Positions 25,429-48,961 of a stretch of DNA of 64,000 nt are shown here, piece after piece; within the stretch, counting starts at the first letter, position 1, and every line of letters starts with the position of its first letter. The DNA lies in contig OZ244561.1 in assembly GCA_965217585.1 (NCBI GenBank), forward strand, positions 7,104,001-7,168,000, written 5' to 3'. The notes under the pieces are model-generated. The model was given only the letters and a program-made list of their open reading frames with translations. It did no database searches and was not told the DNA's origin. Origin of the DNA: Candidatus Latescibacterota bacterium (GTDB taxonomy: Bacteria > Latescibacterota > UBA2968 > UBA8231). Position numbers and translations under genes: made by a program.

Positions 25429-25947
25429 ATGAGAAGTCACAGAATTGCCGCAGCAGTAGTAGTTGCAGGAATCGCCATCGGCATTAGCTCAATCGCCGTC
25501 GCCCACGAGGACCACGACAAGGCTTCCGCACCCACGGCGTTCACCGCCATGACGCCGATTCTGAACGTCGCAAGCGTGGAGGCGAGCATCGAGCACTACA
25601 CCTCGGTTCTTGGTTTCAACAAGGACTGGGACTGGCCCGCCGAGGCCGAGGACAAGACCTTTGCCTCCCTATCCAATGGCGAGGTGCATATCTTTCTCGC
25701 CGAGAATTCGCAGGGTGCCCGACCGGTGTGGCTCTACTACAACGTCGGGGATGTTGACAAGCTGCACGAGGGGTACGCGGCGGCGGGGGCGAACATAAAG
25801 AAGGTGCCTGTTGACGAGCCTTGGGGGGCGCGGGAGATGCTGGTTGAGGACTTAGATGGGCATGTTTTGCGGATTGGCGGGCCGCCTAGCAGGGGAGAGG
25901 GTGGTGAGAGTGAGGAAGGGGGCGATGAGACGAAAGAAGATGGCTAA
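25429..25947 (+). CDS. VOC/glyoxalase family protein with signal peptide
   Basis: GGAGG RBS; 'PILNVASVEASIEHYTSVLGF', 'DVDKLH', 'EPWGAREMLVEDLDGHVLRIG'. Confidence 0.85.
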   Translation: MRSHRIAAAVVVAGIAIGISSIAVAHEDHDKASAPTAFTAMTPILNVASVEASIEHYTSVLGFNKDWDWPAEAEDKTFASLSNGEVHIFLAENSQGARPVWLYYNVGDVDKLHEGYAAAGANIKKVPVDEPWGAREMLVEDLDGHVLRIGGPPSRGEGGESEEGGDETKEDG

Positions 25948-26143
25948 AGTCAACGACACAGAGCAGCCTTCAGAGAGTGAGAACACTCGAACTATCCCTT
26001 CGGCGGTCAAACTCAAGCAGCTAATAGGCACCTCGCCCGCTTGCCGAATGCTGACGCCGGAAGAAATCGAGTTGCTGAGGAAAAGCAAGCAGGAAATGGA
26101 TCAAGTCGTGGGCGAGGTCCTTGCGGGGAAACGAGATACATAG
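25940..26143 (+). CDS. Small protein of an 'MLTPxEI' family, stand-alone paralog of the ORF hidden in csb2
   Basis: MAKVND...GTSPACRMLTPEEIELLRKSKQEM...; 30/47 identities with 29212-29421 over the C-terminal part. Overlaps the VOC stop; alternative start 25925. Confidence 0.6.
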   Translation: MAKVNDTEQPSESENTRTIPSAVKLKQLIGTSPACRMLTPEEIELLRKSKQEMDQVVGEVLAGKRDT

Positions 26144-26300
26144 GATTTGACCAAGCCGATAAACCTGATTGGCGTGGAGTGCAGCAAGGATGGGAGCGAA
26201 GCGGGGGCAGGCAGGCTCTGAGACGCCAATGCCGATGGAGTGGGCGACGCCAATGCTGCGGTAGCCGATGACTCCAGATCGGGTACATAGTAGGTTGCCT

Positions 26301-26424
26301 TATTCAATGAGGCCGGGGCAACGAGGCCCCGGAAATACGCACATACTTTGTGCGAGAAAATCACAACTCCCATACTTCAATGAGGCCCGACGATAGGGGA
26401 CGCTATTGCGCTGTCGGGGAAAAT
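26301..26424 (-). ncRNA. CRISPR-like mini-array (pseudo-repeat / 37-nt spacer / pseudo-repeat), putative regulatory crRNA
   Basis: 26301-26336 matches the array repeat at 27/36 with the stem kept. 26374-26424 keeps the 3' GGCCTCATTGAAG(T) and a longer hairpin. Spacer 26337-26373. Confidence 0.8.
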
Positions 26425-26439
26425 TTCATAGATTTATGG

Positions 26440-26459
26440 TTCATGGGAGTAGTAATATT
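26440..26459 (+). promoter_or_regulatory. Predicted target of the mini-array spacer (TTC PAM + partial protospacer) in an AT-rich promoter region
   Basis: TTC-ATGGGAGTAGTAATATT versus spacer ATGGGAGTTGTGATTTT: 14/17, first 8 perfect. Confidence 0.65.
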
Positions 26460-26484
26460 AAACATTTTAGGAGGATAGAGTCCA

Positions 26485-26688
26485 ATGAGAAATAAATATT
26501 GCCTCACACATTTAGCTTTTCAGTTTGAGCAGGTTTCGGTCGAGATCGTTAATGACGAGCCATCCTACGGGACTAGATATGAGCAACGATCTAGGCCCTC
26601 CAACCCGGAACAGACTACTGTACCAAAACTCAAGCCCTTGTTGCTCCCCGCCGGGGACAGCGCGAGGAATACTAAAGATGACCTCTAA
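26485..26688 (+). CDS. Small hypothetical ORF (67 aa) ahead of csb1; candidate CRISPR-repressed toxin or leader peptide
   Basis: AGGAGG at 26469-26474; no recognisable motif. Confidence 0.35.
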   Translation: MRNKYCLTHLAFQFEQVSVEIVNDEPSYGTRYEQRSRPSNPEQTTVPKLKPLLLPAGDSARNTKDDL

Positions 26689-26760
26689 CCAAACGAAACG
26701 TCGCGACTAATGTCAATCACCGCTGCGGCAAGACGCAGCCAAAACGAACGAGGATAGACT

Positions 26761-27969
26761 ATGATAATTGATCTACAGACCTTGCGGGACGCGGTTGGCG
26801 GAACGGCGGCAGCATTTCGGTGTGTGACCGACTATCAGCCGACGGGAGGCCGTGGTGATAAGGTTTTTCCGCCAACCTATGAAGGCGGCAAATACGCCAC
26901 AGAGGAGCGCGTTGATCCCGCTACTGGCGAGGTTCGGCAGTGCATTCTCTTGGATTCAGTGCAGTCGCAGGCCAACCGGATGGAGTTGGCATTGCTGGAG
27001 GCACACTGCGCCGGAACGGTACAGCTTCCTCTGCTAGTAACGCGCTTCGATCAGGAGAAACTGCTCAAGAAGTTCTCGGTGACCAGCTTGGAGGCACCTC
27101 ATCGCATCGCGGATGCGTTGTTCCGCGACAGCCTGCTTGAAGGCACGATTTTCCGCAAATCAGAGAAAGGTCGAATACTCGACACTGCGGAGGTGAGGAA
27201 CGCCACCGGCCTATTTGGCTTGTGTCCGACCGCACTGATATTTGGGCTGTGGGACTCGACTGGACCGCGTGGAGGCTTGGGGTGCAAGTTTCAGCGGGCG
27301 GTAGTGTCGGAGATTATGGGATATGATGCGGTGGCAGGGGAGAAAACAGGAAGCCGCATCGATCCCGCTCAGATCATGCTTGGAGCGGGTCCGTTATACG
27401 AGCGCAAGTCTTCAGATGATGATGTACCTGATTGGACCTTGGATGAAAAAGCGGGATCTAAAAAGTTGGGGAAGGACAAGAAAGGAAGGCCATCGGAAGC
27501 CAATCACGGAAACGTCACGCCAACTATTACGGAAGGCGGATTCACCATCTCCAGTGCCCGGCAAACGACAACCTTGTCTCTGGCCGTCTTGCGCCGTCTC
27601 CGTTTTCCCCACAACGGTGCCGCTGATTCTAACCACGATACCGACCTCGCGGCACGCACCGCACTGGCCGCCTTGGGCCTCACCGCCGGTATTCTAGCGA
27701 GGATCGATACGGACCTTCGCTCTCGTTGCCAGCTTTTCGCTGAACAAGAACCTGTGTGGGAACTGCTCGACCGCCCAGGAGAACCTCCACGGAAATTTGA
27801 ACTTAGTCCCGAAGATGCGCTGAAACTGTTGGCAGCGGCCATTACCGAGGCGAAAAACGCGGGACTACCGTGGGAGGACGAAATTGAGTTGACCCCATCG
27901 CCCGAACTTGTCGAACTGGTTCGGCGTAGCCAGGAATTGGCCAGCACATCGGGAGAAGGGGAAGACTGA
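26761..27969 (+). CDS. csb1: Type I-G Cas7 (Csb1)
   Basis: 'GDKVFPPTY', 'LLDSVQSQANRME', 'LEAPHRIADA', 'PTALIFGLWDS', 'PSEANHGNV', 'LRSRC'. Confidence 0.93.
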   Translation: MIIDLQTLRDAVGGTAAAFRCVTDYQPTGGRGDKVFPPTYEGGKYATEERVDPATGEVRQCILLDSVQSQANRMELALLEAHCAGTVQLPLLVTRFDQEKLLKKFSVTSLEAPHRIADALFRDSLLEGTIFRKSEKGRILDTAEVRNATGLFGLCPTALIFGLWDSTGPRGGLGCKFQRAVVSEIMGYDAVAGEKTGSRIDPAQIMLGAGPLYERKSSDDDVPDWTLDEKAGSKKLGKDKKGRPSEANHGNVTPTITEGGFTISSARQTTTLSLAVLRRLRFPHNGAADSNHDTDLAARTALAALGLTAGILARIDTDLRSRCQLFAEQEPVWELLDRPGEPPRKFELSPEDALKLLAAAITEAKNAGLPWEDEIELTPSPELVELVRRSQELASTSGEGED

Positions 27970-30329
27970 TGTTCTCTCTTGGCATCCATTACCTGAATGG
28001 ATGGTCCATGGCAGCGGCGGACGGGGCGCGAAAAGAGCAGGCCGAATGGCCACCGCATCCCGATCGGGTGTTCATGGCGTTGGCGGCAGCTTGGTTCGAG
28101 ACCGGCGAAGATCCCGCCGAAGGCGAGGCCCTGCGCTGGCTTGAAGCCTTGCCACCCCCTGCGATTGCCGCCTCGGATGCGGACAGTCGCGTCACTGTTG
28201 TTAGCTATGTGCCCGTCAACGACGCGAACCTTAGTAGCAAGGTGCCTACTAGCGGAGACTTGAACAAACTAAAGAATGCCGGACTGGCCCAGCTTCCAGA
28301 GCATAGATCGCGCCAACCCCGTGGTTTCCCAGTTGCCATCCCCCATGATCCGACGGTACATCTAATTTGGCCGGATGCCGAATTGGGCGTACATCGCGTC
28401 GCCTTAGAACGGCTGGCCGCCAAAGTTACTCATGTGGGTCATTCGGCCTCCTTTGTGCAAATGTGGCTGGAAGCCAAGCCGCCGCCGCCCGCGTGGATTC
28501 CGACGTTTGGCGTCGCCCGTCAGCGACTGCGCGTAGCGAGCCCTGGGCGCTTGAAGGTGTTGGAAACGCGCATGAACCGCGCCGCATGGATCGCCTACCA
28601 CGATCTTCGCAGCGAGATTGAGCAAGCTGAGGCGGACCTCAAGGCGATGAAGCAACCGCCAAGGGTGCCTTGGAAGGCATTCGCGGATGTGGTGCTACTG
28701 GCCAGTGAATCTGCGGTCAAGCAGCATCCAGATTATCCCGGTGCCAAGACGGGTGACATCGTGGTCGCGACGAAACTAGTCAACAGCTTGGTTGACGAAG
28801 CGGGGATCGCCGCGATGCGGGAACTGATCGCCGAGGTTAGTGAAAGCGGCGATCCTGTACTAGTCAGCGCACATGCCTACGAACGCCAAAGCGTCAATGC
28901 CATTCCGATTGCCTTGGCGAAGTTGCTGAGCGAGCGACTCGGGATCCAGTTCGAGACTAATATCGTGCAGACCAATGTCGTTTCCCACACGGGTGCGGAC
29001 GGTTATGGCCGCCTTGCCCGCCAAGCTCGCTTTGAAGGCGGCGTTGATAAGGGCCGCGAATACGTGATGGTTGATGATTTCGTCGGTCAGGGCGGTACGT
29101 TGGCGAATCTGCGTGGCTGGATCCAAAAACAGGGCGGCAAGGTCGTCGGTGCCGTTGTGCTGACCGGCAAGCCGTACTCCGCTAAATTAAATCCTTCACA
29201 GGAGCAACTGCATGAACTCCGACAAAAACACGGATCAGACTTCGAGAGATGGTGGAAGGAACACTTCGGACACCCCTTCTCTTGCCTCACTCAATCAGAA
29301 GCTCGGTACCTCGCCCGCTCCCCGGATGTTGACACCATCCGAAATCGTCTTGCTGCGGCAAAGCAAGAAGGAAATGGCCCAAGTTGCACACGAAGTCCTC
29401 GCGAGCAAAGACAATACATAAAGGAAATGAAAGCGCGTTTGGAAGACTGTTTCCCCGATGGGAAGAAACCCGTGAGTCTGCCTCCGGTGCCGGGCCGTTG
29501 GCAGGGATACGATAGACCCCCGAAAGACAAGGCCCCCGAAGCTCCCGGCTCGGTTTTCGACCCTCAGCTCATTGTCCTCGGCATCAAAGGCAAGCGCGTG
29601 TCCTTGCCGGCGACGCTCAAGCTCACGGCGGCCCTGCGCAGCTTATTGATGAAAGAGTGTCCCGAACAACCGCCGCCCGAGTGGTTCAGTGGACATCGCT
29701 TGGACGGTACGCCCACCGCCGAACCGCATCTGGCTTTGACTCCGCTCCCCTTCGTCGGCGCAGAACATGCAGATGGTCGCATTATGGGTTTGGCTCTGGT
29801 TCTGCCGACGGGTTTGGATCAGCAGGAGGAGGCCGGGCATTGTCTCGAACCGTTCCTGCGCGACATAGCTACCGGATTGCCGCGTGAACATCCTTTGTTC
29901 GATGGCCAGTGGTTCGAGTGCGCTATTGAACTGGAAACCCGCGAACGCCCGCCGAAAAACCTTGACCCGGATACTTGGACACGGGAATCGCGCATTTGGG
30001 CGAGTGTGACCCCGGTGGTCCTGAACCGACATTTCGATGGTAAGGACAAGTGGGAGCGGGCGGCTGAGAGCGTGAAAGATGCATGTCTGCACATTGGTCT
30101 GCCGCGCCCACGCGAGGTGTTGCTGCACCCGGTTTCGCTGGTTGAGGGCGTCCCCCATGCGAGGGAGTATCCGCAACTGATGCGTAAGAACGGTGGGCGA
30201 CGGAGCCATAATCACGCGGTGATCGTCTTTGATGAGCCGGTGCGCGGGCCGGTGCTCGTGGGGGCAGGTCGCTTCCGGGGATATGGGTTGTGCCGCCCGA
30301 TGGATGGAAAAGGTGAAGATCGTGACTGA
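27969..30329 (+). CDS. csb2: Type I-G Csb2 (Cas5/Cas6-like) with an inserted phosphoribosyltransferase domain
   Basis: 'AEWPPHPDRVFMALAAA', 'YVPVND', 'THVGHSASFV', 'FSGH', 'WASVTPVVL', 'GPVLVGAGRFRGYGLC'; insert at about aa 230-470 with 'YVMVDDFVGQGGTL'. Confidence 0.9.
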   Translation: MFSLGIHYLNGWSMAAADGARKEQAEWPPHPDRVFMALAAAWFETGEDPAEGEALRWLEALPPPAIAASDADSRVTVVSYVPVNDANLSSKVPTSGDLNKLKNAGLAQLPEHRSRQPRGFPVAIPHDPTVHLIWPDAELGVHRVALERLAAKVTHVGHSASFVQMWLEAKPPPPAWIPTFGVARQRLRVASPGRLKVLETRMNRAAWIAYHDLRSEIEQAEADLKAMKQPPRVPWKAFADVVLLASESAVKQHPDYPGAKTGDIVVATKLVNSLVDEAGIAAMRELIAEVSESGDPVLVSAHAYERQSVNAIPIALAKLLSERLGIQFETNIVQTNVVSHTGADGYGRLARQARFEGGVDKGREYVMVDDFVGQGGTLANLRGWIQKQGGKVVGAVVLTGKPYSAKLNPSQEQLHELRQKHGSDFERWWKEHFGHPFSCLTQSEARYLARSPDVDTIRNRLAAAKQEGNGPSCTRSPREQRQYIKEMKARLEDCFPDGKKPVSLPPVPGRWQGYDRPPKDKAPEAPGSVFDPQLIVLGIKGKRVSLPATLKLTAALRSLLMKECPEQPPPEWFSGHRLDGTPTAEPHLALTPLPFVGAEHADGRIMGLALVLPTGLDQQEEAGHCLEPFLRDIATGLPREHPLFDGQWFECAIELETRERPPKNLDPDTWTRESRIWASVTPVVLNRHFDGKDKWERAAESVKDACLHIGLPRPREVLLHPVSLVEGVPHAREYPQLMRKNGGRRSHNHAVIVFDEPVRGPVLVGAGRFRGYGLCRPMDGKGEDRD
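29212..29421 (+). CDS. Overlapping (+1 frame) small ORF inside csb2, 'MLTPxEI' family
   Basis: AGGAG 7 nt before the ATG; homologous to 25940-26143 with the same stop position. Confidence 0.55.
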   Translation: MNSDKNTDQTSRDGGRNTSDTPSLASLNQKLGTSPAPRMLTPSEIVLLRQSKKEMAQVAHEVLASKDNT

Positions 30330-33282
30330 GTTGAACGACGCTACGGACTTCGCTGAGTTTTTCAACGAGTTGTGGGGCCATAAGCCTTTTGCTTGGCAGC
30401 AGGAATTGGCGGATAGAGTGCTGAAGCGGGCAGAGGCTCCTTGGCCCGAAGCCATTGCCTTGCCGACAGCAGCAGGCAAGACCGCGTCCTTGGATATCGC
30501 CGTGTTCGCGTTGGCAGCCCAAGCATCTCGGTTGGCTCGGAAGCAAGCCATCACTGCACCGCGTCGCATCTTCTTCGTGGTGGACCGGCGCGTGATAGTG
30601 GACCAAGCATATGAGCGGGCACGCCTGTTAGCAGACCATCTTGAGAAAGCGCAGGACGGCGTTATCAAGCGCGTTGCGGACAACCTGCGCCAGATTGCTC
30701 ACGGCGAGGCGGACGGGTTTGAGAAGGCACGGCCGTTGGCCGCTTATGTATTGCGCGGTGGCATGTATCGGTCGGAGGCTTGGATGAATAGCCCGCTTCA
30801 ACCCATGGTGGTGGCCTCGACCGTCGATCAAATCGGCTCTCGCTTGTTATTTCGCGGCTATGGACGCGGCCATCGCACGTGGCCGATAGCTGCGGGATTG
30901 GTCGCCAACGACAGCCTAATCCTACTCGACGAGGCGCAGTGCGCCCAGCCGTTCTTACAAACCCTGCAAGCGGTGCGGCGCTATCAAAAATGGGGGCATA
31001 CGCCGCTTGAACGTCCCTTTTACCCGGTGGTGATGTCGGCGACCCCGCCGTCGGGGGTGGACCTATTCGAGGACCTATCCGCCGAAAGCCGCAATCCTGA
31101 CCATACGCTAGGTAAGCGCCAACTAGCACAAAAGCCCGCCATCCTGAAGACAGTCGGAAAAGCCAAGGGAAAGCGGGCTACGAGTGTGCTGGCTAGGGCT
31201 TTGGCCGATGCTGCATCGGAGCTGGTCAACGACGAATGCCGCGCTATCGTGGTGTTCGTCAACCGCGTTGCCACGGCGAGGGAGACTTATTGCTTGCTCC
31301 ACAGTCGGGAAGACATTGACGCTGTACTGCTAACAGGTCGGATGCGCCCCGTTGACAAAGAGGTCGTCGTACAACGCTTAAAACCCCTCCGGTCGAGCCA
31401 ATCCGCAGAACGCACTTTGGAAAAGCCGATGATCGTCGTGGCTACCCAAACTCTGGAAGTGGGGGCCGATCTCGACTTTGACGGCTTGGTGACCGAGTGC
31501 GCGAGTCTCGATGCCTTGCGCCAGCGCTTTGGTCGATTGAATCGCATGGGGCGGAAGATTGATGCGCGAGCAGAGATTCTCGTACGCGGCGACCAAACAG
31601 GCGACAAAGGGGACGACCCCGTGTACGGCGAGGCCCTTACTAAGACTTGGGCTTGGCTCAACGAGTGCCAAGACGAAAACGGCGAGGTCGATTTCGGGAT
31701 TGCCCATCTTGAAGAGAAATTGCCAAAGGGCGATTCCCTGACTGCACTCAACGCACCTTCCGTCAATGCCCCGGTGATGCTTCCTGCCCATGTTGATTGC
31801 TGGGCACAGACAGCACCGCAACCACAACCTTCTCCTGATGTGGCTCCGTTTCTGCATGGTCCTCGTGAAGGCGCGGCGGATGTGCAGGTCTGCTGGCGTG
31901 CTGATGTGGATTTGACCCGTGAAAAGGAGACGTTGGAACTTCTGTCCTTGTGCCCGCCGAGCAGCAGTGAGACGCTCCCGGTGCCGGTCGGTGTGTTCAA
32001 GCGTTGGTTAGCCGGAGAGGACGCCGCAGACGACAGTGCCGATGTAGAAGGAATCGGTGCAGAGGATGGCATTAGCGGGAACAGTTCGTCCAAGGTGGAA
32101 CGTCAGATAATCCGATGGCGAGGGGTGGCCGAAACGGAATCCGAACACATCACAGCGGACCCTAGGACGATTCGTCCCGGCGATGTTATTGTGATCCCAG
32201 CTAACCATCCGGGGCTAGCGCGTCAACTCGGAGACCTGCCGCCGGACGCCGACTTGGATGTGGGAGATCGCGCCTATCGGCTCGCCCGCGCTAAGCCCAT
32301 CCTTCGCTTGCACCCGAAGTTAGTGGACGATTGGCCGGATTCCGTTACGGCTAAAGGTCCCGCAGACGAACTGCTAAAGGATCTGGAGCAGAAGTACGAC
32401 GACGATCCGCATGAGGTCGGCAATGCCTTGAGGGAGCTTCTACAGGAACTGGCCGCCTCTGAATCGCTCCCAGAACACTGGTCTTGGTTGCCGAAAGCGG
32501 CAAAAGAATTGAGCAAGGAATACTCCGGCTCCAAGCTGGCCCGTGCCTATCGCGCTGTCGGCGGCAAAAGTATCGTCCTCGTCGGGCGGCAGCGCATACC
32601 GGAACTCACCCTCGAAGCCGACCACTTCAGCGATGAGGACGACGCTAGCGCGTCTGGGATCGGGCGTCCCGTCAAATTGTTAAGTCACCTGCCCGGCGTC
32701 GAAGCGTTTGCCCGCCGTCATGCCTCGGGCTGCGGCTTGCCAGCGGACTTGGTCGAAGTTCTCGCCTGCGCTGGCCTGTTGCATGACTTGGGCAAGGCCG
32801 ATCCTCGATTTCAGTCGTTATTGCGTGGTGGCACTCGCTGGTTGGGCGGGGAACTTCTCGCCAAGTCTGCCGAAATGCCGAGAAGTCCGGCAGCCTATGA
32901 GAAGGCTCGGACCGCTTCCGGCTATCCGAAAGGTGGGCGGCACGAACTGCTTTCGGTGCGCTTGGCAGAAAGCGCGTCGATTCTTTTGCCGGAAAGGGAC
33001 GATCTGCGAGACTTGGTTCTGCATTTGATTGCCAGCCATCACGGCCACGGTCGGCCGTTCGCGCCGGTGGTGTGTGACGAGCAGGGCGAGGATGTAGATT
33101 TCGAGTTGCGCGGCCAACGGACGCACTGGTCTGGTCCCACCGGCCTTGAGCGTCTCGACTCCGGCGTCGCGGATCGCTATTGGCGGCTGGTGCGGCGCTA
33201 TGGCTGGTGGGGTTTGGCTTGGCTGGAATCTCTGCTGCGACTTGCTGATTGGCGGCAGAGCGAACAGGAGGAGACACAATGA
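30322..33282 (+). CDS. cas3: Type I-G Cas3 (helicase with C-terminal HD nuclease)
   Basis: 'LPTAAGKT', 'VVDRRVIVDQ', 'LLDEAQ', 'MSAT', 'QRFGRLNR', then HD 'LLHDLGKAD', 'RHELLS', 'SHHGHGRP', 'LRLAD'. GTG start overlapping the csb2 stop (ATG 30304 is an alternative). Confidence 0.93.
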   Translation: MTELNDATDFAEFFNELWGHKPFAWQQELADRVLKRAEAPWPEAIALPTAAGKTASLDIAVFALAAQASRLARKQAITAPRRIFFVVDRRVIVDQAYERARLLADHLEKAQDGVIKRVADNLRQIAHGEADGFEKARPLAAYVLRGGMYRSEAWMNSPLQPMVVASTVDQIGSRLLFRGYGRGHRTWPIAAGLVANDSLILLDEAQCAQPFLQTLQAVRRYQKWGHTPLERPFYPVVMSATPPSGVDLFEDLSAESRNPDHTLGKRQLAQKPAILKTVGKAKGKRATSVLARALADAASELVNDECRAIVVFVNRVATARETYCLLHSREDIDAVLLTGRMRPVDKEVVVQRLKPLRSSQSAERTLEKPMIVVATQTLEVGADLDFDGLVTECASLDALRQRFGRLNRMGRKIDARAEILVRGDQTGDKGDDPVYGEALTKTWAWLNECQDENGEVDFGIAHLEEKLPKGDSLTALNAPSVNAPVMLPAHVDCWAQTAPQPQPSPDVAPFLHGPREGAADVQVCWRADVDLTREKETLELLSLCPPSSSETLPVPVGVFKRWLAGEDAADDSADVEGIGAEDGISGNSSSKVERQIIRWRGVAETESEHITADPRTIRPGDVIVIPANHPGLARQLGDLPPDADLDVGDRAYRLARAKPILRLHPKLVDDWPDSVTAKGPADELLKDLEQKYDDDPHEVGNALRELLQELAASESLPEHWSWLPKAAKELSKEYSGSKLARAYRAVGGKSIVLVGRQRIPELTLEADHFSDEDDASASGIGRPVKLLSHLPGVEAFARRHASGCGLPADLVEVLACAGLLHDLGKADPRFQSLLRGGTRWLGGELLAKSAEMPRSPAAYEKARTASGYPKGGRHELLSVRLAESASILLPERDDLRDLVLHLIASHHGHGRPFAPVVCDEQGEDVDFELRGQRTHWSGPTGLERLDSGVADRYWRLVRRYGWWGLAWLESLLRLADWRQSEQEETQ

Positions 33283-34208
33283 CCGCAAATGAATCAACTC
33301 CGGGGCTTTTGCTGAACGGACTTGACGGCAGCAATCCGCTCGGATTTCTCGCGGCCATTGGCACTGCGGTTGTCCTGCAAGATGTATTCCCAGAAATACG
33401 CCTTGGCTGGGAACAAATAGAGGGCGGTTGGAGGCCATCCTTGGCAGGTTGTGGCGACGATGAGCAGGAATTTGCGGAAAAACTCTCAGAAGCTCTAAAA
33501 GACGCACCCATGACTGTCTTTGATGTTGACAACAAGATGCCTTTTGACACCGAGAAATTTTCTCGCAAACTGCGAGATGTTCAGTGCTGTTCGTCTATTG
33601 CCGATCGTCGAGATGCCGATTTTCTGTCCAGCTTTGGAACCGAACTATATCCCGATGAGAAAAACGGACAGTTCCAAGATTCAAGGTTCAGGATGGTACG
33701 TAGCGGAGATAGTGCGGGACAAGGATTGCCGTTCTATGCCAAGGAAATGCGAAAAAAGGTCAGCATAGATCACATTCAACGCACTTTGTTTCACGCTTGG
33801 GATTACCAAGACACAGGGTATAGCCTGCGTTGGGACCCTATTGAAGATCAGCGGTATGCTCTGCGTTGGCGCGATCCGAGCAAGTCAAGCCAAGACACCA
33901 TGTTGGCGGCCAATAGCTTGGCGGTTGAGGCATTACAGTGGTTTCCGGTGGTAATGCCCGTTGGGAACCAAGCGCAAACTACGGGATTTCAGCGACTCAG
34001 GCGGCGCGAGACCTATTTCGTCTGGCCGATTTGGACCCCGATGGTGGGCATAGAAACTGTGCGTTCTCTGCTGGCCTTGGACGATCTTTGCAAAGAACCC
34101 GTACCCCGTTCATCCCTTGTCAAGAGAGGTATTGAGGAAGTTTATCGCAGTCAGCGCATCCAGCAAAGCCAGTACTACAGCAACTTCCTTGTTGCTGTCC
34201 CAGCGTGA
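33279..34208 (+). CDS. csb3: Type I-G short large-subunit (Csb3/Cas8u2-type)
   Basis: 'LNGLDGSNPLGFLAAIG', 'LRWDP', 'ANSLAVEAL', 'FVWPIW'; ATGA overlap with cas3; gene order csb1-csb2-cas3-csb3. Confidence 0.8.
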   Translation: MTANESTPGLLLNGLDGSNPLGFLAAIGTAVVLQDVFPEIRLGWEQIEGGWRPSLAGCGDDEQEFAEKLSEALKDAPMTVFDVDNKMPFDTEKFSRKLRDVQCCSSIADRRDADFLSSFGTELYPDEKNGQFQDSRFRMVRSGDSAGQGLPFYAKEMRKKVSIDHIQRTLFHAWDYQDTGYSLRWDPIEDQRYALRWRDPSKSSQDTMLAANSLAVEALQWFPVVMPVGNQAQTTGFQRLRRRETYFVWPIWTPMVGIETVRSLLALDDLCKEPVPRSSLVKRGIEEVYRSQRIQQSQYYSNFLVAVPA

Positions 34209-34387
34209 AACGCTTCGTGAACCAAGCCTCGGTTAGGAGCCGATGCTGATCTTCAGAGCAAGGCAATTAACTTGGGTATAGAAGTTCTCTGACAGATGAA
34301 ATTTGAAATTATTCCATAGCGTAGTAGGTTTACGGCGCATGTTGAACTCTTGTCATCGCCGTGCATTCCGATTGGATACCGCAATCT

Positions 34388-35857
34388 ATGAGCAAAGCAG
34401 TCTATTTGGCTGGTGATTTTTCTGGAATCCAGCGTTATGTGCTGGGTGTGAAGAGCGCGGGCAAAGCACAGGCGAAGCGCTTGCGAGCCCGGTCTTTCCT
34501 GCTCGAACTCTTTGAACATGCCGCACTTTGGACGGTAAAGGAACGTTTGCGTATTGCTGACGATGATGTCCTAGTCCGGGGTGGGGGTGGTTTCCTGATA
34601 AGGATTCCACCTGATACCGATCCCGTTCGCCTTGAGGAGATTCGTTCCGGCTTGCAACGCAAGCTGTGGGATGAATCCGGCGGAGAAGTCCAGTTCTCGT
34701 TGGGCTGGGCTGAGACGCCACTCGCCGCCCGCGCTCATCTGGAACTTCAGAAGCGCCGTATAGGAGCTTTCATGCTGCAAAGCAGCGGCGGTTGGAACCC
34801 GGCGGGTTGGAGCCAACCTTCACTTGACAAGCCGTGTGAAGTCTGCCGCCAATCTCCAGGACAGCAGAGCGTGCAGGATGAAGGTGAGGAAGTCCTACAT
34901 TGTAGAAGCTGTCTGGAGGCCCGCAAACTCGGTGAAAAGCTGACTCGGTGGAAATGGATGCGCCCAGGTGGCGGCTCAGTGCAAGCGCTGGGCGTTGGCT
35001 TCGAGCACGTGAACGATCAGGAGTCTGAGGCTTTTCGCGTGGGCCGCTGGATACCGCGTCATTCCGATTCCCGCGAACCGCTGACATTCCAAGAAATCGC
35101 AGAGCAAGCCCGTAGCGACCGTCGTTTGGCTGTGTTGAAAGCCGATGTGGACGACATGGGCGTCCGGGTCGGACAAATTGCCGGAGAAGACCAGTCGTAT
35201 AACCGGCTGCGGTCTTTCAGTTACAGTCTGCACGAGTTCTTCGGGCAGACAATTCAGGAATTGTTGGCAAAGTCATGGCCTTTGATCTATACGCTGTATG
35301 CCGGCGGGGACGATCTGCTGCTAGTTGGCCCTTGGGACGTTGTGCTCGACTTTGCGGGGTCTCTGGTAAGAAAGTTTGAGACGGGTCCGGCCCAAGAGTA
35401 TTCACCGCTAACCTTAAGTGCTGGAATCGCTCTAACCCCTTACCGCGTACCGATCCGTCACGCAGTCGAGCGTGCGGAGGAACTCTTGGAGTCGGCTAAG
35501 CAACGTCCGGGCAAGAATCGGTGCGCCGCCCTCGGGGCGGATTGGAGTTGGAAGCAACACGAATCTGTAGTAGGCGATGGCAAGCGGCTGGCGGACTGGG
35601 TTGGGGATGGAGTGGCTCCTCGCTCCCTACTACATCGTTTGCTGCGTCTCGCGGAGAGCAGCAAGCCTGTGCGAGTGGCTCGCTGGGCTTATCAAATCGA
35701 GCGCAACGTGCATCGACGCCACACCGACTTTCGTCGCTGGGCAAACCGTGTGATCGAATATCTAGGGCGCGACGAACAGCGCACAAACGAATTGGCGGCA
35801 AGTCTCCGCTATGCCTTGTTGGCAACACGACCGCGAAAGGAAGGACGCGATGAGTAG
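34388..35857 (+). CDS. cas10: Compact Cas10/Csm1 lacking the HD domain
   Basis: Begins at Palm1 'GDFSGIQRY...KRLRARSF'; Zn finger CEVC/CRSC; 'LKADVDDMG'; intact 'YAGGDDLLLVG'; 'LSAGI'. Confidence 0.9.
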   Translation: MSKAVYLAGDFSGIQRYVLGVKSAGKAQAKRLRARSFLLELFEHAALWTVKERLRIADDDVLVRGGGGFLIRIPPDTDPVRLEEIRSGLQRKLWDESGGEVQFSLGWAETPLAARAHLELQKRRIGAFMLQSSGGWNPAGWSQPSLDKPCEVCRQSPGQQSVQDEGEEVLHCRSCLEARKLGEKLTRWKWMRPGGGSVQALGVGFEHVNDQESEAFRVGRWIPRHSDSREPLTFQEIAEQARSDRRLAVLKADVDDMGVRVGQIAGEDQSYNRLRSFSYSLHEFFGQTIQELLAKSWPLIYTLYAGGDDLLLVGPWDVVLDFAGSLVRKFETGPAQEYSPLTLSAGIALTPYRVPIRHAVERAEELLESAKQRPGKNRCAALGADWSWKQHESVVGDGKRLADWVGDGVAPRSLLHRLLRLAESSKPVRVARWAYQIERNVHRRHTDFRRWANRVIEYLGRDEQRTNELAASLRYALLATRPRKEGRDE

Positions 35858-36380
35858 CATGGAGGATGCTATGAAAAAGGCGGGATTCAAACCGGAACGA
35901 CAACAGCGGCGAGATCTCGGCGGCGATAATCGTAACAGACCGCAAAGGGAAGCACTTCCGGAATTCCCAAGTTCGTACTTTGAAGTCGATCCACAAAGCC
36001 GAAAATACCTTCAACCTATATTCGTCGCCAAACAATCTGTCGATCGTTTGGCGAGGATATTGGGGAAGGAATCCAGACCGAAACTCACTACCGGCCAGAT
36101 GCGCCGCTTCTTCAATCACTGCCGCGAGATTGAACGTCAATTGAAAGTTGACGGCAGAAGCTGGCATCAAGTATCTGCCCGCTTCGAGGGACTCTGTTAC
36201 CAAGCTCAGTACGCAAAATCGGCGGGTAAGATACCCAAGGAATTTCAAGATTTCATCGATGACAACGTGAAACGGGTAGGCTCCGCGAAAGAGCCGGAAA
36301 GGGCCTTTCTGGACGGCTTTCTACCCCATTTCGAGGCATTGGTTGGCTTTGGGGCCGCTTATATGAGGGAGGTTTCCTGA
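35850..36380 (+). CDS. csm2: Type III-A small subunit Csm2 (Cas11)
   Basis: 'LTTGQMRRFF', 'FLDGFLPHFEALVGF'; position between cas10 and csm3. Confidence 0.85.
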   Translation: MSSMEDAMKKAGFKPERQQRRDLGGDNRNRPQREALPEFPSSYFEVDPQSRKYLQPIFVAKQSVDRLARILGKESRPKLTTGQMRRFFNHCREIERQLKVDGRSWHQVSARFEGLCYQAQYAKSAGKIPKEFQDFIDDNVKRVGSAKEPERAFLDGFLPHFEALVGFGAAYMREVS

Positions 36381-36381
36381 C

Positions 36382-37053
36382 ATGCAAAGAACCGCTATTC
36401 ACACCATTACCTTTACCGCTCGCTGCGAAAGCGGTCTTCATATTGGAGGTTCGCAAGACGAGTTGGCAATTGGTGGGTCCGACAATCCGGTGATCAAGAA
36501 TCCAGAAACTCGTCAGCCCTATATCCCCGGTTCCTCGCTGAAGGGAAAGATGCGAGGCGAATTGGAGAAGCAATTGGGCCGATTCAGCGGTCGGGATAAT
36601 GATCGTCCGTGCAGTTGTGCAAAGGATGAATGCCCCGTTTGTCGGATATTTGGAGCGCACATGAACACCAGAAGCAATCTCGGCCCTTCCCGTATCATCG
36701 TCCGCGACGGTAGGCCCCTCACGGGTGTTCGCATCGAGAACAAAACGGAAAATGTCATAAATCGCCAAACTGGCGCGGCTCAACATCCGCGCTCAAACGA
36801 GCGGGTCGTTGAGGGAACAGAGTTTGGGATGCAGATCGTTCTACAAGTCTTCGATCTTGATAGAGATTTCTCGTACACGGACACCAACGGTGGCTCGCAT
36901 CGAGGCGACGAAGCCCTCCAAGCGGTCGTCGCTGATGGCTTGAATCTGGTGCAGATGACGGGTCTGGGCGGTGGGACAAGCCGGGGTTCAGGCGCGGTGA
37001 GTTTCGACGATTTCAAATTGGACGGCAATACATGGACCCATTGGTCCGTCTGA
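36382..37053 (+). CDS. csm3: Type III-A Csm3 (Cas7)
   Basis: 'SGLHIGG', catalytic Asp in 'IGGSDNPV', 'PYIPGSSLKGKMR', 'CRIFG', 'KTENVINR', 'LGGGTSRGSG'. Confidence 0.92.
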   Translation: MQRTAIHTITFTARCESGLHIGGSQDELAIGGSDNPVIKNPETRQPYIPGSSLKGKMRGELEKQLGRFSGRDNDRPCSCAKDECPVCRIFGAHMNTRSNLGPSRIIVRDGRPLTGVRIENKTENVINRQTGAAQHPRSNERVVEGTEFGMQIVLQVFDLDRDFSYTDTNGGSHRGDEALQAVVADGLNLVQMTGLGGGTSRGSGAVSFDDFKLDGNTWTHWSV

Positions 37054-37982
37054 GGCTGAAGCCTCTCGGGGTTTGGACCACGCCTTGGCAGGCGGATTCG
37101 CTGCTTGGCGCGATGGCGTGTGCATGGGCGCGTTCTCGGGGGCAGGATGCGCTCCAGCGGGACTTTTTGGAGCCGTGGCTCGCCCACGAGCCGCTGTTTG
37201 TCATCTCCGATGCTTTTCCTGGCGATTCTTTGCCAGCACCGGCGGGCCTGCCGTTATGGTGGGACTGGCCTTCGGAAGAACGCAAAACCGTCAAGAAATG
37301 TCGCTGGATGACTACGACCGACTTTCGTCGAGTCCAAGAGGGGAAAAAACCCAATCTAGAAGATCCCGGTATCTCTATCCGCGATCGCGTGCGGCTGCGC
37401 AATACCATCTCCCGCGTTTCCAATACCACGGGTGCTGGTGGTGAACTCTTTGAAGTGCCGTTTTCAAATCTCAGCAAGTCCGACGGCAGCCTGACCATTT
37501 TTGCTCGCGCTGCCGACGGTGGCTTGCAGATTTTGCTGGAGGCCTTGGAAATGCTGGGGCGGACCGGGTATGGTGCCGATGCCTCGGTGGGCCACGGCGG
37601 TTTTGAGCTAGACGGCGATCCAACTTCCTGTCCCGAACTGGATAATGTTCTTGGGGCTGACGGGTTCACATCCCTCTCAACGTTCCAGCCAGCGGCTACT
37701 GACCCAGTGGAAGGTTTCTGGCGACTCTTCGTCAAGTACGGAAAACTGGCCCCAGAGTTCCACTCTAGCGCCGTGTTCAAACGTCCACAGGTCATGCTGG
37801 CGGCCGGTGCCTGCTTCCGCACGAAACACCCTCCAAAACCTTTCTACGGTGCTCCGATTGGGCCGGAGCGCTTGCTTAGCAAAAGTGCCCGTGAATCGCT
37901 TGCCGCACGGGGCATTCACCCGGTTCAAGCGGCTTTCGCGCTCGCTGTTCCCATGATCTGGCTAAAGGGAACAGACGGGTGA
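37032..37982 (+). CDS. csm4: Type III-A Csm4 (Cas5)
   Basis: 'ADSLLGAMA', 'VISDAFP', 'RNTISR', 'GYGADASVGHGGF', 'FKRP...GACF'. Confidence 0.85.
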   Translation: MDPLVRLRLKPLGVWTTPWQADSLLGAMACAWARSRGQDALQRDFLEPWLAHEPLFVISDAFPGDSLPAPAGLPLWWDWPSEERKTVKKCRWMTTTDFRRVQEGKKPNLEDPGISIRDRVRLRNTISRVSNTTGAGGELFEVPFSNLSKSDGSLTIFARAADGGLQILLEALEMLGRTGYGADASVGHGGFELDGDPTSCPELDNVLGADGFTSLSTFQPAATDPVEGFWRLFVKYGKLAPEFHSSAVFKRPQVMLAAGACFRTKHPPKPFYGAPIGPERLLSKSARESLAARGIHPVQAAFALAVPMIWLKGTDG

Positions 37983-38009
37983 GCTTACAGTTAAAGGATT
38001 GACGCTTAT

Positions 38010-39083
38010 ATGGCACACCTACTCATCACCACTGTTGGCACGTCTCTGCTAACCAACCGCGATGACCGTCCATGGGCAGGATGGAATGGGCGGGCTGGCG
38101 ACCCGTTGCCAGACGTAGTGGACGTAGATCAGTGGCTGGATCAGGCAGAGGTGGTCACAGCTAGCGCCGAAACTAATACCTTGTACGCCATTGGCGTCCA
38201 TGACTCAGATCATATCCTCTTCCTCCACTCCGACACACCAGAAGGGCGCTTTTGTTCAGAGCGGCTGCAACATTTCTACGCCAAGCGTTGCCGTCAAGTT
38301 TACGGTCGTTCGCTAACTGCCTTGGGGTACTCCCACGCTAGCTTCTCGCAAAAAGGGTTGAAAGTCTTGGTCGAAGAAGCCATCAAAGCCGTGCGTGAAG
38401 CGCGTAAAAAATCTCTTCAACCCGTATTTTGTGCCACAGGTGGGTTCAAGGCCGAAATCGCTTTTCTCAACTTATTGGGTGCCTTGTTAGAGGTCGAAGT
38501 GTACTACATCCACGAGCAATTTAGAGAGATTGTTCGCCTGCCTCGCTTGCCATTGAATTGGGATATGCAATGGGTTATAGAACGCCAGGATTTTTTTCAG
38601 TGGATTGATGACGAGCCACGTCCAAGCGCAGAGGTGGAGAACCGATTAAAGGCGCGCCCAGAACTTCGGCCGCTCATCGAAGATGATGCGGATGGAAACT
38701 CGTACCTCAATGCGGCGGGCGACTTGCTGTTTCGCGTTGCCAAGGAACGGTTGAGCCTTGAACCTCGTGCGACTTGGCCCGATGTGGTGGCGAGACCGCC
38801 GCAAGAAAAAGATCACCTTTCTGATGTGGAGCATCACCGTCCGAAAGGTTGGAAGAATTTCGTCTCTCGCCTTTGTGCGATTGATTGCGTAAGCCGAGTC
38901 TCTTATGATACGGCCGCCTTTGGCGGCGAAGTGGTCAAGGTGCTCGACGGTGCCAACGGCGTCATTGCGGTGCGATATGGTAAGGGCGACAAGGAGTTAC
39001 CCTTACGCATTGAGACATCTGCTCGTGGGACAGAGCAAACGGAGTTGGTTGAAGAATACATTGCACGGTGTCTTCGGAACTGA
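38010..39083 (+). CDS. APE2256/Crn1-like CARF protein with wHTH-like region and an extra C-terminal domain
   Basis: 'ITTVGTSLL', 'SAETN', 'HSDTPEG', 'ATGGFKAE', 'YYIHE...LP'; C-terminal about 100 aa with 'EHHRP...IETSARG'. Confidence 0.82.
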   Translation: MAHLLITTVGTSLLTNRDDRPWAGWNGRAGDPLPDVVDVDQWLDQAEVVTASAETNTLYAIGVHDSDHILFLHSDTPEGRFCSERLQHFYAKRCRQVYGRSLTALGYSHASFSQKGLKVLVEEAIKAVREARKKSLQPVFCATGGFKAEIAFLNLLGALLEVEVYYIHEQFREIVRLPRLPLNWDMQWVIERQDFFQWIDDEPRPSAEVENRLKARPELRPLIEDDADGNSYLNAAGDLLFRVAKERLSLEPRATWPDVVARPPQEKDHLSDVEHHRPKGWKNFVSRLCAIDCVSRVSYDTAAFGGEVVKVLDGANGVIAVRYGKGDKELPLRIETSARGTEQTELVEEYIARCLRN

Positions 39084-39179
39084 CCGCTTTGCGTAATTTA
39101 CATCAGGTTTTAAATACCTAAAGGCTTGAAGGCATGATTACTCCGCTGGTTGCTTTAACCATATAGGGAACGCCACCCC

Positions 39180-40892: not shown

Positions 40893-40897
40893 CGAAT

Positions 40898-41191
40898 ATG
40901 GCCAACGAGCGTCTCTACATCGTTGCTTATGACATTGCCGAGCCGAAGCGTTGGCGGCGCGTGTTCAAGGTGATGAAAGGCTATGGACACTGGTTGCAGT
41001 TATCGATTTTCCAGTGTCGGCTGACGGCCCGGCGACGGGCTGAGATGACGGCGCGGTTGGAAGGTTTGATCAAATTGGCAGAGGATCACATTCTGATTTT
41101 GGATTTGGGGCCTGCTGACCAAGTTGATCCTCTGGTAGAAAGTCTGGGCAAGACGTATGAAGCGCCGAGTCGGCAGGCGACAATTGTTTAG
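40898..41191 (+). CDS. cas2: Cas2
   Basis: 'YIVAYDIAEPKRWRRV', 'LQLSIFQC'. Confidence 0.95.
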   Translation: MANERLYIVAYDIAEPKRWRRVFKVMKGYGHWLQLSIFQCRLTARRRAEMTARLEGLIKLAEDHILILDLGPADQVDPLVESLGKTYEAPSRQATIV

Positions 41192-47400: not shown

Positions 47401-48004
47401 CCCGGCCTCATTGAAGCGCCGTCTCGTCGCACCAGGTCGTATCGTGCTGCGGGCATTTCCGGGGTGGAAACGCCCCGGCCTCATTGAAGCTCGATACCGA
47501 CGATGTAAAAGCAGTCCACCTGTTGCGATTTCCGGGGTGGAAACGCCCCGGCCTCATTGAAGCGCCGTCTCGTCGCACCAGGTCGTATCGTGCTGCGGGC
47601 ATTTCCGGGGTGGAAACGCCCCGGCCTCATTGAAGCCTCTTGGGAATATAGGATAGTCAAACACATTGCCATGATTTCCGGGGTGGAAACGCCCCGGCCT
47701 CATTGAAGCAAGAAATTCCGGTATCGCGCCCTGTTGACCGTGATCGAATTTCCGGGGTGGAAACGCCCCGGCCTCATTGAAGCAAGAGCAACGACTCATC
47801 CGAGATACCGCCCTGCTGCCATTTCCGGGGTGGAAACGCCCCGGCCTCATTGAAGCCTCAATCCGGCAAGCTCATTTACCACTGCCATGCCCTATTTCCG
47901 GGGTGGAAACGCCCCGGCCTCATTGAAGCTACTACGTCTACGAAGACACCGAAGCCGGGTCTAACCGGATTTCCGGGGTGGAAACGCCCCGATCTCATTG
48001 AAGC
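41401..48004 (+). CRISPR. CRISPR array, about 90 repeats / 89 spacers (manual count)
   Basis: 36-nt repeat ATTTCCGGGGTGGAAACGCCCCGGCCTCATTGAAGC (hairpin plus ATTGAAGC handle). Spacers about 35-46 nt. Last repeat 47969-48004 is degenerate. Confidence 0.98.
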
Positions 48005-48074
48005 GCTCCAATCGAGTTGGGTGATTGTATCGCTTCTGAGAAGAGATTATCTTAAGTTAAACTTGAAAGGGGGC

Positions 48075-48326
48075 ATGACTATGCCAGAGGTGATCAGCGC
48101 CAAACAGCTCCGAGAGCGTCTACAGGATGTCGTTAAAAAAGTGCGACACGGGGAGCGATTTACCGTTCTATACCGCAGTCGTCCGGCTTTCGACATCGTC
48201 CCGGTTGGCAGTCCACCGCTCGAAAACGCGCCACTGGAATCGGATTCGCTGTACCAGGCCCCAGCCGTTGGGGCATCCGAATCGGGGGACGCTGCCGCAC
48301 GGCATGACGAGGTGCTGTACCGGTGA
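48075..48326 (+). CDS. Phd/YefM family antitoxin
   Basis: 'ISAKQLRERLQDVVKKVRHGERFTVLYRSRP'; GTGA overlap with the PIN gene. Confidence 0.8.
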   Translation: MTMPEVISAKQLRERLQDVVKKVRHGERFTVLYRSRPAFDIVPVGSPPLENAPLESDSLYQAPAVGASESGDAAARHDEVLYR

Positions 48327-48730: not shown

Positions 48731-48769
48731 GCGCAGCAGGTTTTGACAAGCCGTGTGAAGTCTGTCGCC

Positions 48770-48961
48770 ATTTCCGGGGTGGCAACGCCCCGGCCTCATT
48801 GAAGTCCGTAGGGGCTCTTGTTCCTCGTCGATGCGTCCGCGGTAATTTCCGGGGTGGCAACGCCCCGGCCTCATTGAAGTCCGTAGGGGCGACCGGCCGG
48901 TCGCCCCTACATCGCCATTTCTCATATTTCCGGGGAGGCCCCGCCCCGCCCTCATTGAGGC
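48770..48961 (+). CRISPR. Degenerate three-repeat mini-array between two TA operons
   Basis: Repeats at 48770-48805 and 48845-48880 (34/36, identical to each other) and 48926-48961 (more decayed). Confidence 0.85.
48883..48910. repeat. Perfect 28-bp GTAG-type REP-like palindrome in spacer position
   Basis: GTAGGGGCGACCGGCCGGTCGCCCCTAC. Confidence 0.75.

Follow-up and report, generated by a model that had tools for sequence, protein, structure and literature searches.

Regulatory mini-arrays have been described in several subtypes of the CRISPR-Cas systems. The CreR mini-CRISPRs are known in subtypes I-B, I-E and V-A, and the same report mentions creA-like elements that were found by hand for subtype I-U, none of them tested (Liu et al. 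2023, 10.1101/2023.03.10.532045). Among the gene products associated with such RNAs, CreP is a small protein of 103 amino acids (aa) (10.1101/2024.01.05.574328), and in the mini-array census of Shmakov et al. 2023 (PMC10120712), type I-G is represented by 235 loci, the mini-array fraction being 0.04. As regards the effector of type I-G itself, Shangguan et al. 2022 (PMC9638904) indicate that Csb2 cuts the repeat 4 nucleotides (nt) 3' of the hairpin, leaving an 8-nt handle, that the protospacer-adjacent motif (PAM) is TTN, and that, in I-G as elsewhere, every sixth base of the guide is unpaired along the Cas7 backbone. The subject of the present analysis is a mini-array in a type I-G cas locus, located in a stretch of 64,000 nt (hereafter, the window) from Candidatus Latescibacterota bacterium (UBA2968; UBA8231), assembly GCA_965217585.1, contig OZ244561.1, positions 7,104,001 to 7,168,000 of the forward strand; all positions below are window coordinates. 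To our knowledge, type I-G is the least studied of the type I subtypes, and the control of its expression is not known. With a probability that we put at roughly 80%, the element in the window is a CreR-type mini-CRISPR that autorepresses the type I-G cas operon.

The mini-array (26301-26424, minus strand) is located 15 kb upstream of the main CRISPR array, inside the cas locus but outside the array, and consists of two repeat-like sequences around a single spacer-like sequence, which is the layout of CreR and CreA. Read along the minus strand, it starts with PsiR1, a degenerate repeat of 51 nt (26424-26374) that comprises a hairpin, altered in its stem and enlarged in its loop, the tetranucleotide CCTC and an 8-nt handle, ATTGAAGT (26381-26374). 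PsiR1 is followed by PsiS, a 37-nt spacer-like guide (26373-26337), in which nt 1-17 (26373-26357) are the target-pairing part and the 3' half is a hairpin of 6 base pairs, present in the minimum-energy fold, and the mini-array ends with PsiR2 (26336-26301), which departs from the array repeat in the loop and the last 2 nt only. A previous, sequence-only reading of this stretch had described the same pseudo-repeat/spacer/pseudo-repeat on the strand opposite to the array and had proposed that the 3' half of the spacer folds on itself; the coordinates and the fold were both reproduced. The 12-mer GGCCTCATTGAA is found exactly on the minus strand in both pseudo-repeats, at 26303-26314 and 26376-26387, and a scan that allows at most one mismatch yields 93 matches, compared with 0.42 expected by chance, all the others being on the plus strand at 41424-48878. 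PsiR2 corresponds to the Rfam family CRISPR-DR16 on the minus strand (32.6 bits, E 8e-6), slightly below the gathering score of 35, and for PsiR1 there are no Rfam matches.

The pseudo-repeats have kept different parts of the parental repeat, as is typical of CreR and CreA. PsiR1 keeps the bases of the 5' handle (7 of the 8 in the array handle ATTGAAGC), and PsiR2 keeps those of the 3' handle, that is, the hairpin. The stem of PsiR1 is altered in sequence with pairing retained, and in the minimum-energy fold of the window exactly 4 nt separate the end of the hairpin from the handle, as they do in 8 of the 15 other loci with such an element that are introduced below (9 of 16). PsiR2 is near-invariant in the alignment with three of these loci (L029, L033 and L036). 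The changes relative to the repeat fall in the loop or in the parts that are cut off, and the loop also varies freely among functional repeats of the genus. With a hairpin, 4 nt and an 8-nt handle in both pseudo-repeats, the anatomy of the mini-array fits a processable CRISPR RNA (crRNA), to judge from its predicted folds. In the arrays of the genus, the loop varies freely both within and between arrays, and the stem base and the last 12 nt are constant (L022 9570-9975; L023 700-1460 and 9346-9600; L025 12100-14550).

The guide has a partial match next to the mini-array. Spacer nt 1-17 agree with 26443-26459 of the plus strand at 14 of the 17 positions, perfectly over positions 1-8 and with mismatches at 9, 12 and 15, and the target is directly preceded on the non-target strand by 5'-TTC-3' (26440-26442), which conforms to the reported I-G PAM. 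Partial complementarity that starts at the PAM-proximal end and is directed to a PAM-flanked site is another feature of CreR and CreA guides, and the match, the perfect first eight positions and the preceding TTC are all as originally read. The chance level was estimated in the 813-nt intergenic region, with the mini-array masked, from 20000 composition-preserving shuffles of the spacer and from 89 real array spacers. Over 17 nt, at least 14 matches are reached by 32 of the 20000 shuffles with any PAM, by 2 of 20000 with TTN and by none of the 89 real spacers. Over 12 and 20 nt, lengths that, unlike 17, were not picked post hoc, the respective counts among the 20000 shuffles are 902 and 706 with any PAM, and 73 and 66 with TTN. 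The 8-nt seed is found at 96 other sites in the genome, six of them flanked by TTN, and compared with those six, the adjacent target is the best 17-nt match.

Much of the case comes from homologous loci. A scan based on the Csb1 alignment, with one genome per GTDB species, produced 569 relatives, of which the best 80 loci were taken, each with 3 kb upstream (L029-L108); these are 62-90% identical to the window Csb1, are labelled as metagenome-assembled genomes (MAGs) of at least nine phyla and, with the window, make up the 81 loci of all family counts. The device was searched for on the strand opposite to csb1, at most 900 nt upstream, as the handle ATTGAAGN (at most one mismatch) followed by 17 nt for which a matching site exists before csb1 is reached. 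When TTN and at least 13 of 17 matches are required, 14 of the 81 loci are found, the window included, and none in the strand-swapped decoy. Without the PAM filter, 15 loci are found, 14 of which have TT at positions -3/-2, against a background TT frequency of 0.052; the decoy then gives three matches, namely, two mirror images of the pair in L029 and one match by chance. The 16th locus, L036, matches at 11 of 17 positions, perfectly over nt 1-11 save position 6, after TTG. Altogether, the device is present in 16 of the 81 loci (the window, L029, L033, L036, L037, L050, L052, L056, L059, L060, L065, L067, L076, L082, L092 and L104), and a crude motif search detects both pseudo-repeats in 10 of the 80 loci.

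The guides of these loci represent about ten unrelated sequence lineages, every one of which is paired with a target that matches it. In cognate pairs, 11-16 of 17 positions match (mean 14.5), compared with a mean of 7.29 for the 240 non-cognate pairs, among which the high values come mainly from within one spacer lineage, and none of 10000 target permutations reaches the cognate sum. Positions 1, 2, 4, 5, 7, 10, 11 and 16 match in all 16 loci, yet show two to four different bases across the loci. In L029, the nearest relative of the window (Csb1 90% identical), the homologous guide differs at positions 5 and 12, and the change at position 5 is mirrored in the target. Mismatches are found in 12, 11 and 14 of the 16 loci at positions 6, 12 and 18, respectively, near the 75% expected for unconstrained positions, versus none of 16 at eight of the pairing positions, and complementarity stops at nt 17-18 in every locus. 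Judging from these counts, the mismatch peaks at 6, 12 and 18 are a Cascade signature. Covariation of spacer and target had been named beforehand as a test of the proposal that the RNA guides Cascade to the adjacent promoter, and it holds in these 16 loci, where every device has a spacer of its own and the target varies along with it; TTN PAMs, the free positions 6, 12 and 18, and a predicted promoter just upstream of the target that is common to the loci lend further weight to the proposal.

The same 17-nt complementarity on the two sides of PsiR1 could, in principle, be an inverted repeat at the RNA or DNA level that functions without Cascade, as a stem in the minus-strand transcript in an antisense or attenuator arrangement between overlapping promoters. 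Should the minus-strand transcript start upstream of 26459, its leader would pair with guide nt 1-17 (minimum-energy fold, z = -3.7), and the minus-strand promoter described below places a predicted start near the target. However, such a stem predicts neither the conserved TT beside one arm (14 of 15), nor free drift at precisely the positions that are numbered 6, 12 and 18 from the handle, nor an arm that always starts right after the 8-nt handle; furthermore, an RNA stem would tolerate G-U pairs, but the matched positions are kept as identities. This explanation therefore appears highly improbable. A coding explanation of the 3-nt spacing of the mismatches was also considered, given that those at positions 9, 12 and 15 in the window are synonymous in the frame that starts at the ATG of the target; it is ruled out by a stop in that frame in L067 and by non-synonymous changes in L092.

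The target lies by an AT-rich stretch (25-28% G+C) with predicted promoters on both strands. In a relaxed scan, the cas-operon promoter is predicted at 26406-26434 of the plus strand, with the -35 element TTGCGC (26406-26411) inside PsiR1, a 17-nt spacer and the -10 element TAGATT (26429-26434); the target begins 8 nt further on, roughly where transcription would start. The relaxed scan, which gives consensus matches without a shuffle control, identifies a sigma-70-like site facing csb1 in all 16 loci, with 1-19 nt between the end of the -10 element and target nt 1 in 14 of them. The spacing is 17 nt in 15 of the 16, and the -35 element is a perfect TTGACA in nine. The four closest loci (the window, L029, L033 and L036) have an aligned TTGCGC/TTGTGC -35 element with the same spacing, and the -10 element is better in the three others than in the window. 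The strict scan and the scan at 8/12 return minus-strand sites only, including TTCTCA-16-TAAAAT, a low-confidence prediction of the mini-array promoter at 26464-26491 of the minus strand (-35 TTCTCA, 26491-26486; 16-nt spacer; -10 TAAAAT, 26469-26464). In the strict scan, this is the single site in 25900-26900, compared with 0.6 expected in shuffles, and comparable minus-strand sites are located 19-30 nt past target nt 1 in L033, L052, L060 and L065. From this promoter, the mini-array transcript would start near 26457, inside the target, so that Cascade at 26443-26459 would cover the points from which the two promoters start transcription. The RNA runs X22 and X23 yield contigs over the glyoxalase gene and divergent pieces of csb1 only, none of them on 26156-26911, and are uninformative either way.

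Taken together, these features are best explained by the following course of events. The minus strand would be transcribed from the AT-rich stretch, and the Cas6 domain of Csb2 would cut the transcript 4 nt past the hairpin in both PsiR1 and PsiR2, in the latter after CCUC, between 26309 and 26308. The expected product is a crRNA-like RNA of 73 nt (26381-26309) with the handle AUUGAAGU, the 37-nt guide and a 3' hairpin. Cascade loaded with this RNA would bind the TTC-flanked site through three 5-nt segments, corresponding to three Cas7 segments, and with no pairing past nt 17-18, the R-loop could not extend and Cas3 would not be licensed. The bound Cascade would then be a roadblock to initiation at the cas promoter and would repress the cas operon, together with the small gene that is its first cistron and, probably, the mini-array's own promoter. 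The crRNAs of the main array would compete with the regulatory RNA for Cascade. By analogy with CreR, an abundance of array crRNAs or the inactivation of Cascade by an anti-CRISPR would relieve the repression and raise cas expression.

Past the target, the first cistron is ORF67, an open reading frame (ORF) of 67 aa (26485-26688, plus strand), with the Shine-Dalgarno sequence AGGAGG at 26469-26474. The sequence-only reading had called it the first ORF on the cas strand, which is correct for the region after the mini-array but not for the strand as a whole, given an intact ORF, also of 67 aa, upstream at 25940-26143. ORF67 has two metagenomic homologs that are 76-79% identical and differ by in-frame indels. 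A hidden Markov model (HMM) of ORF67 matches only L037, L050 and L056, which amounts to 4 of the 16 mini-array loci with the window included, versus none of the 65 others. L065 and L076 have a different small ORF in the same slot, so at least two unrelated families of small ORFs occupy the space between the target and csb1. The stop codon of the small ORF overlaps the csb1 start codon in five loci (L037, L050, L056, L076 and L082). Six of the 16 loci (L029, L033, L052, L059, L067 and L092) have no small ORF in this slot, and in L029 the RNA and the target are kept, together with no more of ORF67 than its 3' end. ORF67 and csb1 are not separated by any terminator-like site. By eye, the small ORFs of L082 and L036 look related to ORF67.

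Searches for the identity of ORF67 returned little. It belongs to no family in NCBIfam, Pfam, PHROGs or PADLOC and contains no transmembrane segment or known toxin domain; AlphaFold2, run on three sequences, gives no secondary structure (predicted local distance difference test, pLDDT, 63; predicted template modelling score, pTM, 0.16), and the protein atlas provides no look-alike, the best score of 0.80 being uninformative. The ORF67 alignment finds its own copy and one weak match (E 0.0017) among 168 genomes of the phylum, and pattern matches, none of them confirmed, among JGI metagenome and GTDB genome contigs. For the other small ORFs, only sub-threshold Pfam noise was obtained.

These observations bear on whether the device is primarily an addiction module of the CreTA/CrePA kind, in which ORF67 would be a toxin whose promoter is held off by Cascade and the crRNA-like RNA and which would be set free if Cascade were lost or inhibited, so that the module would guard the CRISPR-Cas locus and sense anti-CRISPRs, with cas regulation being secondary. 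ORF67 is located directly downstream of the target behind a strong AGGAGG, its homologs with in-frame indels identify it as a real conserved coding sequence, its HMM matches mini-array loci only, and the unrelated families in the slot recall the diversity of CreT and CreP toxins; moreover, the entire module is an indel relative to the closest loci. There is precedent both for a protein toxin repressed by Cascade (10.1101/2024.01.05.574328) and for a single CreA that represses a toxin together with the cas genes (10.1101/2023.03.10.532045). However, an addiction module is difficult to reconcile with the six loci without a small ORF and with L029, where most of ORF67 is deleted with the RNA and target in place; the overlap of the stop codon with the csb1 start in five loci points to an operon member co-translated with Cas7 rather than to a separately guarded toxin, and ORF67 shows no transmembrane segment, known toxin domain, confident fold or atlas look-alike. 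Addiction as the primary role thus seems unlikely. Of the two outcomes offered by the sequence-only reading, autorepression of the cas operon and silencing of a small toxin, the former is the better supported, in view of the same six and five loci. Under autorepression, the small ORF would head the repressed operon; that it is a toxin is conceivable but is not the preferred view.

A more far-reaching and rather doubtful proposal is that the small proteins encoded between the target and csb1 (the ORF67 family and at least one other) are new, I-G-specific effectors repressed by Cascade, either toxins or tuners of Cascade assembly, and that mismatches at guide positions 3 and 9 are deliberate detuning. 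If this proposal is true, toxins would make cells depend on working Cascade and would punish anti-CRISPRs, and detuning at positions 3 and 9 would let the switch respond to small changes in free Cascade. Irrespective of this proposal, the small ORFs associated with the mini-arrays are candidates for a new accessory function.

The surroundings of the mini-array in the genus consist of an AAA-ATPase gene and a glyoxalase gene, followed by either of two I-G variants. The conserved 5' leader of csb1 is at 26710-26760 (plus strand), and in the same-genus genomes G014 and G041 the glyoxalase gene abuts this leader. A search with the DNA of 26337-26709 in the 31 genomes of the same-genus comparison gave no matches. 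The extra segment of the window, 806 nt, is a mosaic of a small ORF that shares 93% DNA identity with the gene at the head of the other I-G variant, two gene fragments (39 nt of the 3' end of the AAA-ATPase gene and a 74-nt fragment), the inverted mini-array, the AT-rich stretch and ORF67. Run X5 contains a contig that joins 25908 to 26715 and represents a relative without the module; in run X4 the module is unchanged, and this is probably the same strain.

Several observations weigh against autorepression by a CreR-type RNA. The cas loci of the same genus that are closest to that of the window (G014, G041 and G004; csb1 75-88% identical) have neither the mini-array nor ORF67, and this hot spot holds relic repeats, with a deletion scar in G011. 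On a quick Csb1 tree, the device is patchy, with 11 changes by parsimony, at least six of which are forced by well-supported branches. The plus-strand promoter of the window is weak, at 7/12 consensus; it was missed by the strict and 8/12 scans and surfaces only at the relaxed threshold, in a scan without a shuffle control. Among individual loci, the match in L036 is not significant by itself (499 of 2000 shuffles reach it), and the target in L056 is preceded by CTA rather than TTN. Positions 3 and 9 are mismatched in 5 of the 16 loci each, which is unexpected from known Cascade seeds. Furthermore, we know of no I-G system in which repression without cleavage by a 17-nt match has been shown. 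Sequence and comparison show how the mini-array is built, which PAM flanks the target, that spacer and target co-vary, that positions 6, 12 and 18 are free and that the geometry is conserved; Cascade-dependent repression is supported indirectly, namely, by the covariation and the 6/12/18 pattern. At the mismatched sites, the target base is mostly A or T, and no explanation was found for positions 3 and 9.

The relic repeats at the hot spot suggest yet another possibility, that the mini-array is the remnant of a former array left by rearrangement and that its match to the adjacent AT-rich DNA is due to chance. The gap between the glyoxalase gene and csb1 is indeed a mosaic with gene fragments, degenerate repeats trail the main array too, and in G011 a lone repeat is found at the same hot spot. 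There, a small ORF after the glyoxalase gene is fused to a lone terminal CRISPR repeat and the array trailer (L010 1490-1740), an arrangement that is the scar of the deletion of a whole I-G locus. Nevertheless, a remnant would not be expected to recur with a co-varying spacer and target in 15 other loci from several phyla, the chance probability of the match in the window is only about 1e-4 to 4e-3 with the PAM, and the PsiR1 stem has changed in sequence yet still pairs. A search artefact is unlikely as well, the strand-swapped decoy giving no matches with the PAM and one unrelated chance match without it. The probability of this explanation is accordingly close to negligible.

The patchy distribution on the Csb1 tree implies that the autorepression device is dispensable, and, as far as the comparison of loci goes, it is optional and has been gained or lost time and again, in line with reports on other subtypes. 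A large ORF ends just upstream of csb1 in 30 of the 65 device-free loci, so that csb1 is probably not the first gene there. The Csb1 tree is discordant with the phylum labels, which suggests wide horizontal spread of the I-G variant. At 62-90% identity across MAGs of many phyla, this variant would appear to carry the regulator along as part of a horizontally mobile defence island. The phylum labels include Latescibacterota, Nitrospirota, Binatota, Acidobacteriota, Chloroflexota, Pseudomonadota, Gemmatimonadota, Rhodothermota and Tectimicrobiota.

The cas operon is on the plus strand and extends over 26761-41191, from csb1 to cas2. It starts with csb1/cas7g (26761-27969), the first effector gene, and further encodes Csb2 (786 aa), Cas3g, a 319-aa Cas8g-like protein, a type III-like block, Cas4-Cas1 and Cas2. 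The identification of these genes bears out the assignment of the locus to type I-G in the sequence-only reading. The type I-G signature set of Cas7g/Csb1, the Cas5-Cas6 fusion Csb2, Cas3g, the large subunit Cas8g and fused Cas4-Cas1 is complete (TIGR02570, E 1e-20; TIGR02165, E 6e-89; TIGR02621, E 6e-225). The 319-aa protein belongs to the I-G 'Cas3-extension family' by NCBIfam (NF049934) and to Cas8g by PADLOC (model PDLC01514, E 5e-79), and the Cas1 and Cas4 domains are fused in a single protein of 570 aa. The short Cas8g-like protein and the 786-aa Csb2 are atypical for I-G. In Csb2 (27969-30329), an insert separates the Cas5-like and Cas6-like parts; residues 308-420 show weak phosphoribosyltransferase matches, and residues 419-492 are homologous to the free-standing 67-aa ORF at 25940-26143 and to the small gene with which the other I-G variant begins (G001 and G002). 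An exact copy of the last 12 nt of the repeat (CCTCATTGAAGC) is present inside the coding region of cas3g in G014 (L024, around 5597), and a similar sequence is found at the same place of cas3g in L098 and L029; this may be chance or a lone handle-like motif.

The type III-like module (34361-39083) sits between the I-G effector genes and cas4-cas1 and consists of a 498-aa Cas10 that lacks the N-terminal part, Csm2, Csm3, Csm4 and a CARF (APE2256) protein. The arrangement is the same in G041, where, in addition, a 4-repeat array is located between the cas8g-like gene and cas10, whereas G004 has the I-G genes without the module. This Csm-like module might load the regulatory RNA as well, but the conserved TT in the DNA next to the target and the 17-nt match point to DNA recognition by Cascade.

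The main CRISPR array (41401-48005, plus strand) contains about 90 repeats, from which PsiR1 and PsiR2 are derived, and is the single CRISPR locus in the whole genome of 7.32 Mb. A comparison of the whole array with phages and plasmids gave no protospacer matches, a comparison with the genus gave array-to-array and lone-repeat matches only, and the 89 spacers have nothing beyond short chance matches in their own genome. With no real protospacers matched, the PAM was deduced from the regulatory targets instead. The array ends in a degenerate repeat and is followed by a pair of small ORFs (48082-48730) that resembles an antitoxin/PIN-toxin pair, a guess by look, no family search having been made. 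Downstream of this pair (region 47970-48960), there are three further degenerate repeats, two of which have the ATTGAAGT end as in PsiR1, and one 'spacer' at 48770-48960 is a palindromic element with at least 10 copies in the genome. When the degenerate repeats at 48770-48960 were considered as a second mini-array, no PAM-flanked target was found nearby.

The 16 loci with the device are a natural, sequence-defined set of I-G guide/target pairs. Their comparison indicates that I-G Cascade reads guide positions 1-5, 7-11 and 13-17 and ignores positions 6, 12 and 18, that the divergent I-G variant uses a TTN PAM, and that 17 nt is the evolved pairing length for binding to a host site. These rules could be of use for the design of I-G CRISPR interference and for putting the general CreR model to the test in a subtype new to it. 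A full-text literature search found no reports on type I-G with CreR, a single one on I-U with CreR (10.1101/2023.03.10.532045), and reports on I-G with mini-arrays in which no I-G case was analysed; the search covered main texts, and supplementary lists may hold I-G or I-U examples. The targets, the PAM and the covariation of I-G mini-arrays are worked out in the present analysis.

Compared with CreR (10.1101/2023.03.10.532045), the element in the window is alike in that degenerate repeats flank the guide, with the 5'-handle bases kept in PsiR1 and the 3' handle in PsiR2, that the guide has a partial match in a site that is flanked by a PAM and lies at the effector cas promoter (a predicted promoter in the window), and that related loci carry it only sporadically; the predicted role is autorepression with a response to crRNA load and to anti-CRISPRs. 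It differs from the CreR cases in belonging to subtype I-G (formerly I-U), in that the -35 element of the predicted cas promoter is inside PsiR1, in the fixed 17-nt match that equals three Cas7 segments, and in the small ORF between the target and csb1 in about half of the loci. CreTA of the Haloarcula hispanica I-B system (PMC9458426) and CrePA of the Acinetobacter baylyi I-F system (10.1101/2024.01.05.574328) share with the element in the window a crRNA-like CreA with two pseudo-repeats, the target of which is matched by the seed, is flanked by a PAM and falls in the promoter (a predicted one in the window) of a neighbouring small gene within the cas locus. In contrast to both, ORF67 has no KilAC or other known domain, the small ORF is missing in 6 of the 16 loci, and, where present, it is often translationally coupled to csb1; besides, unlike the CreT toxins, which are RNAs, it is as a protein that ORF67 is conserved.

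Like mini-arrays in the census (PMC10120712), the I-G element is intergenic, has two repeats, is oriented opposite to cas and matches the (here predicted) promoter of the first effector gene with a 5' seed and a PAM, whereas the accessible text of the census analyses no I-G case; in the csb1 variant studied here, the frequency is 16 of 81. The canonical I-G crRNA and Cascade (Shangguan et al. 2022, PMC9638904) have the same 36-nt hairpin repeat, Csb2 cut (a predicted one in the window), 8-nt handle, TTN PAM and unpaired sixth base. The present case differs in that the guide matches host DNA, and over 17 nt only, and in the 786-aa Csb2 with an insert, the 319-aa Cas8g-like protein and the embedded type III-like module. 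Thus, regulatory mini-arrays are a known kind of element, and what the sequence comparison adds to them is a predicted -35 element within PsiR1, a match with a fixed length of 17 nt, small ORFs that accompany the device and an apparent tolerance of mismatches at positions 3 and 9.

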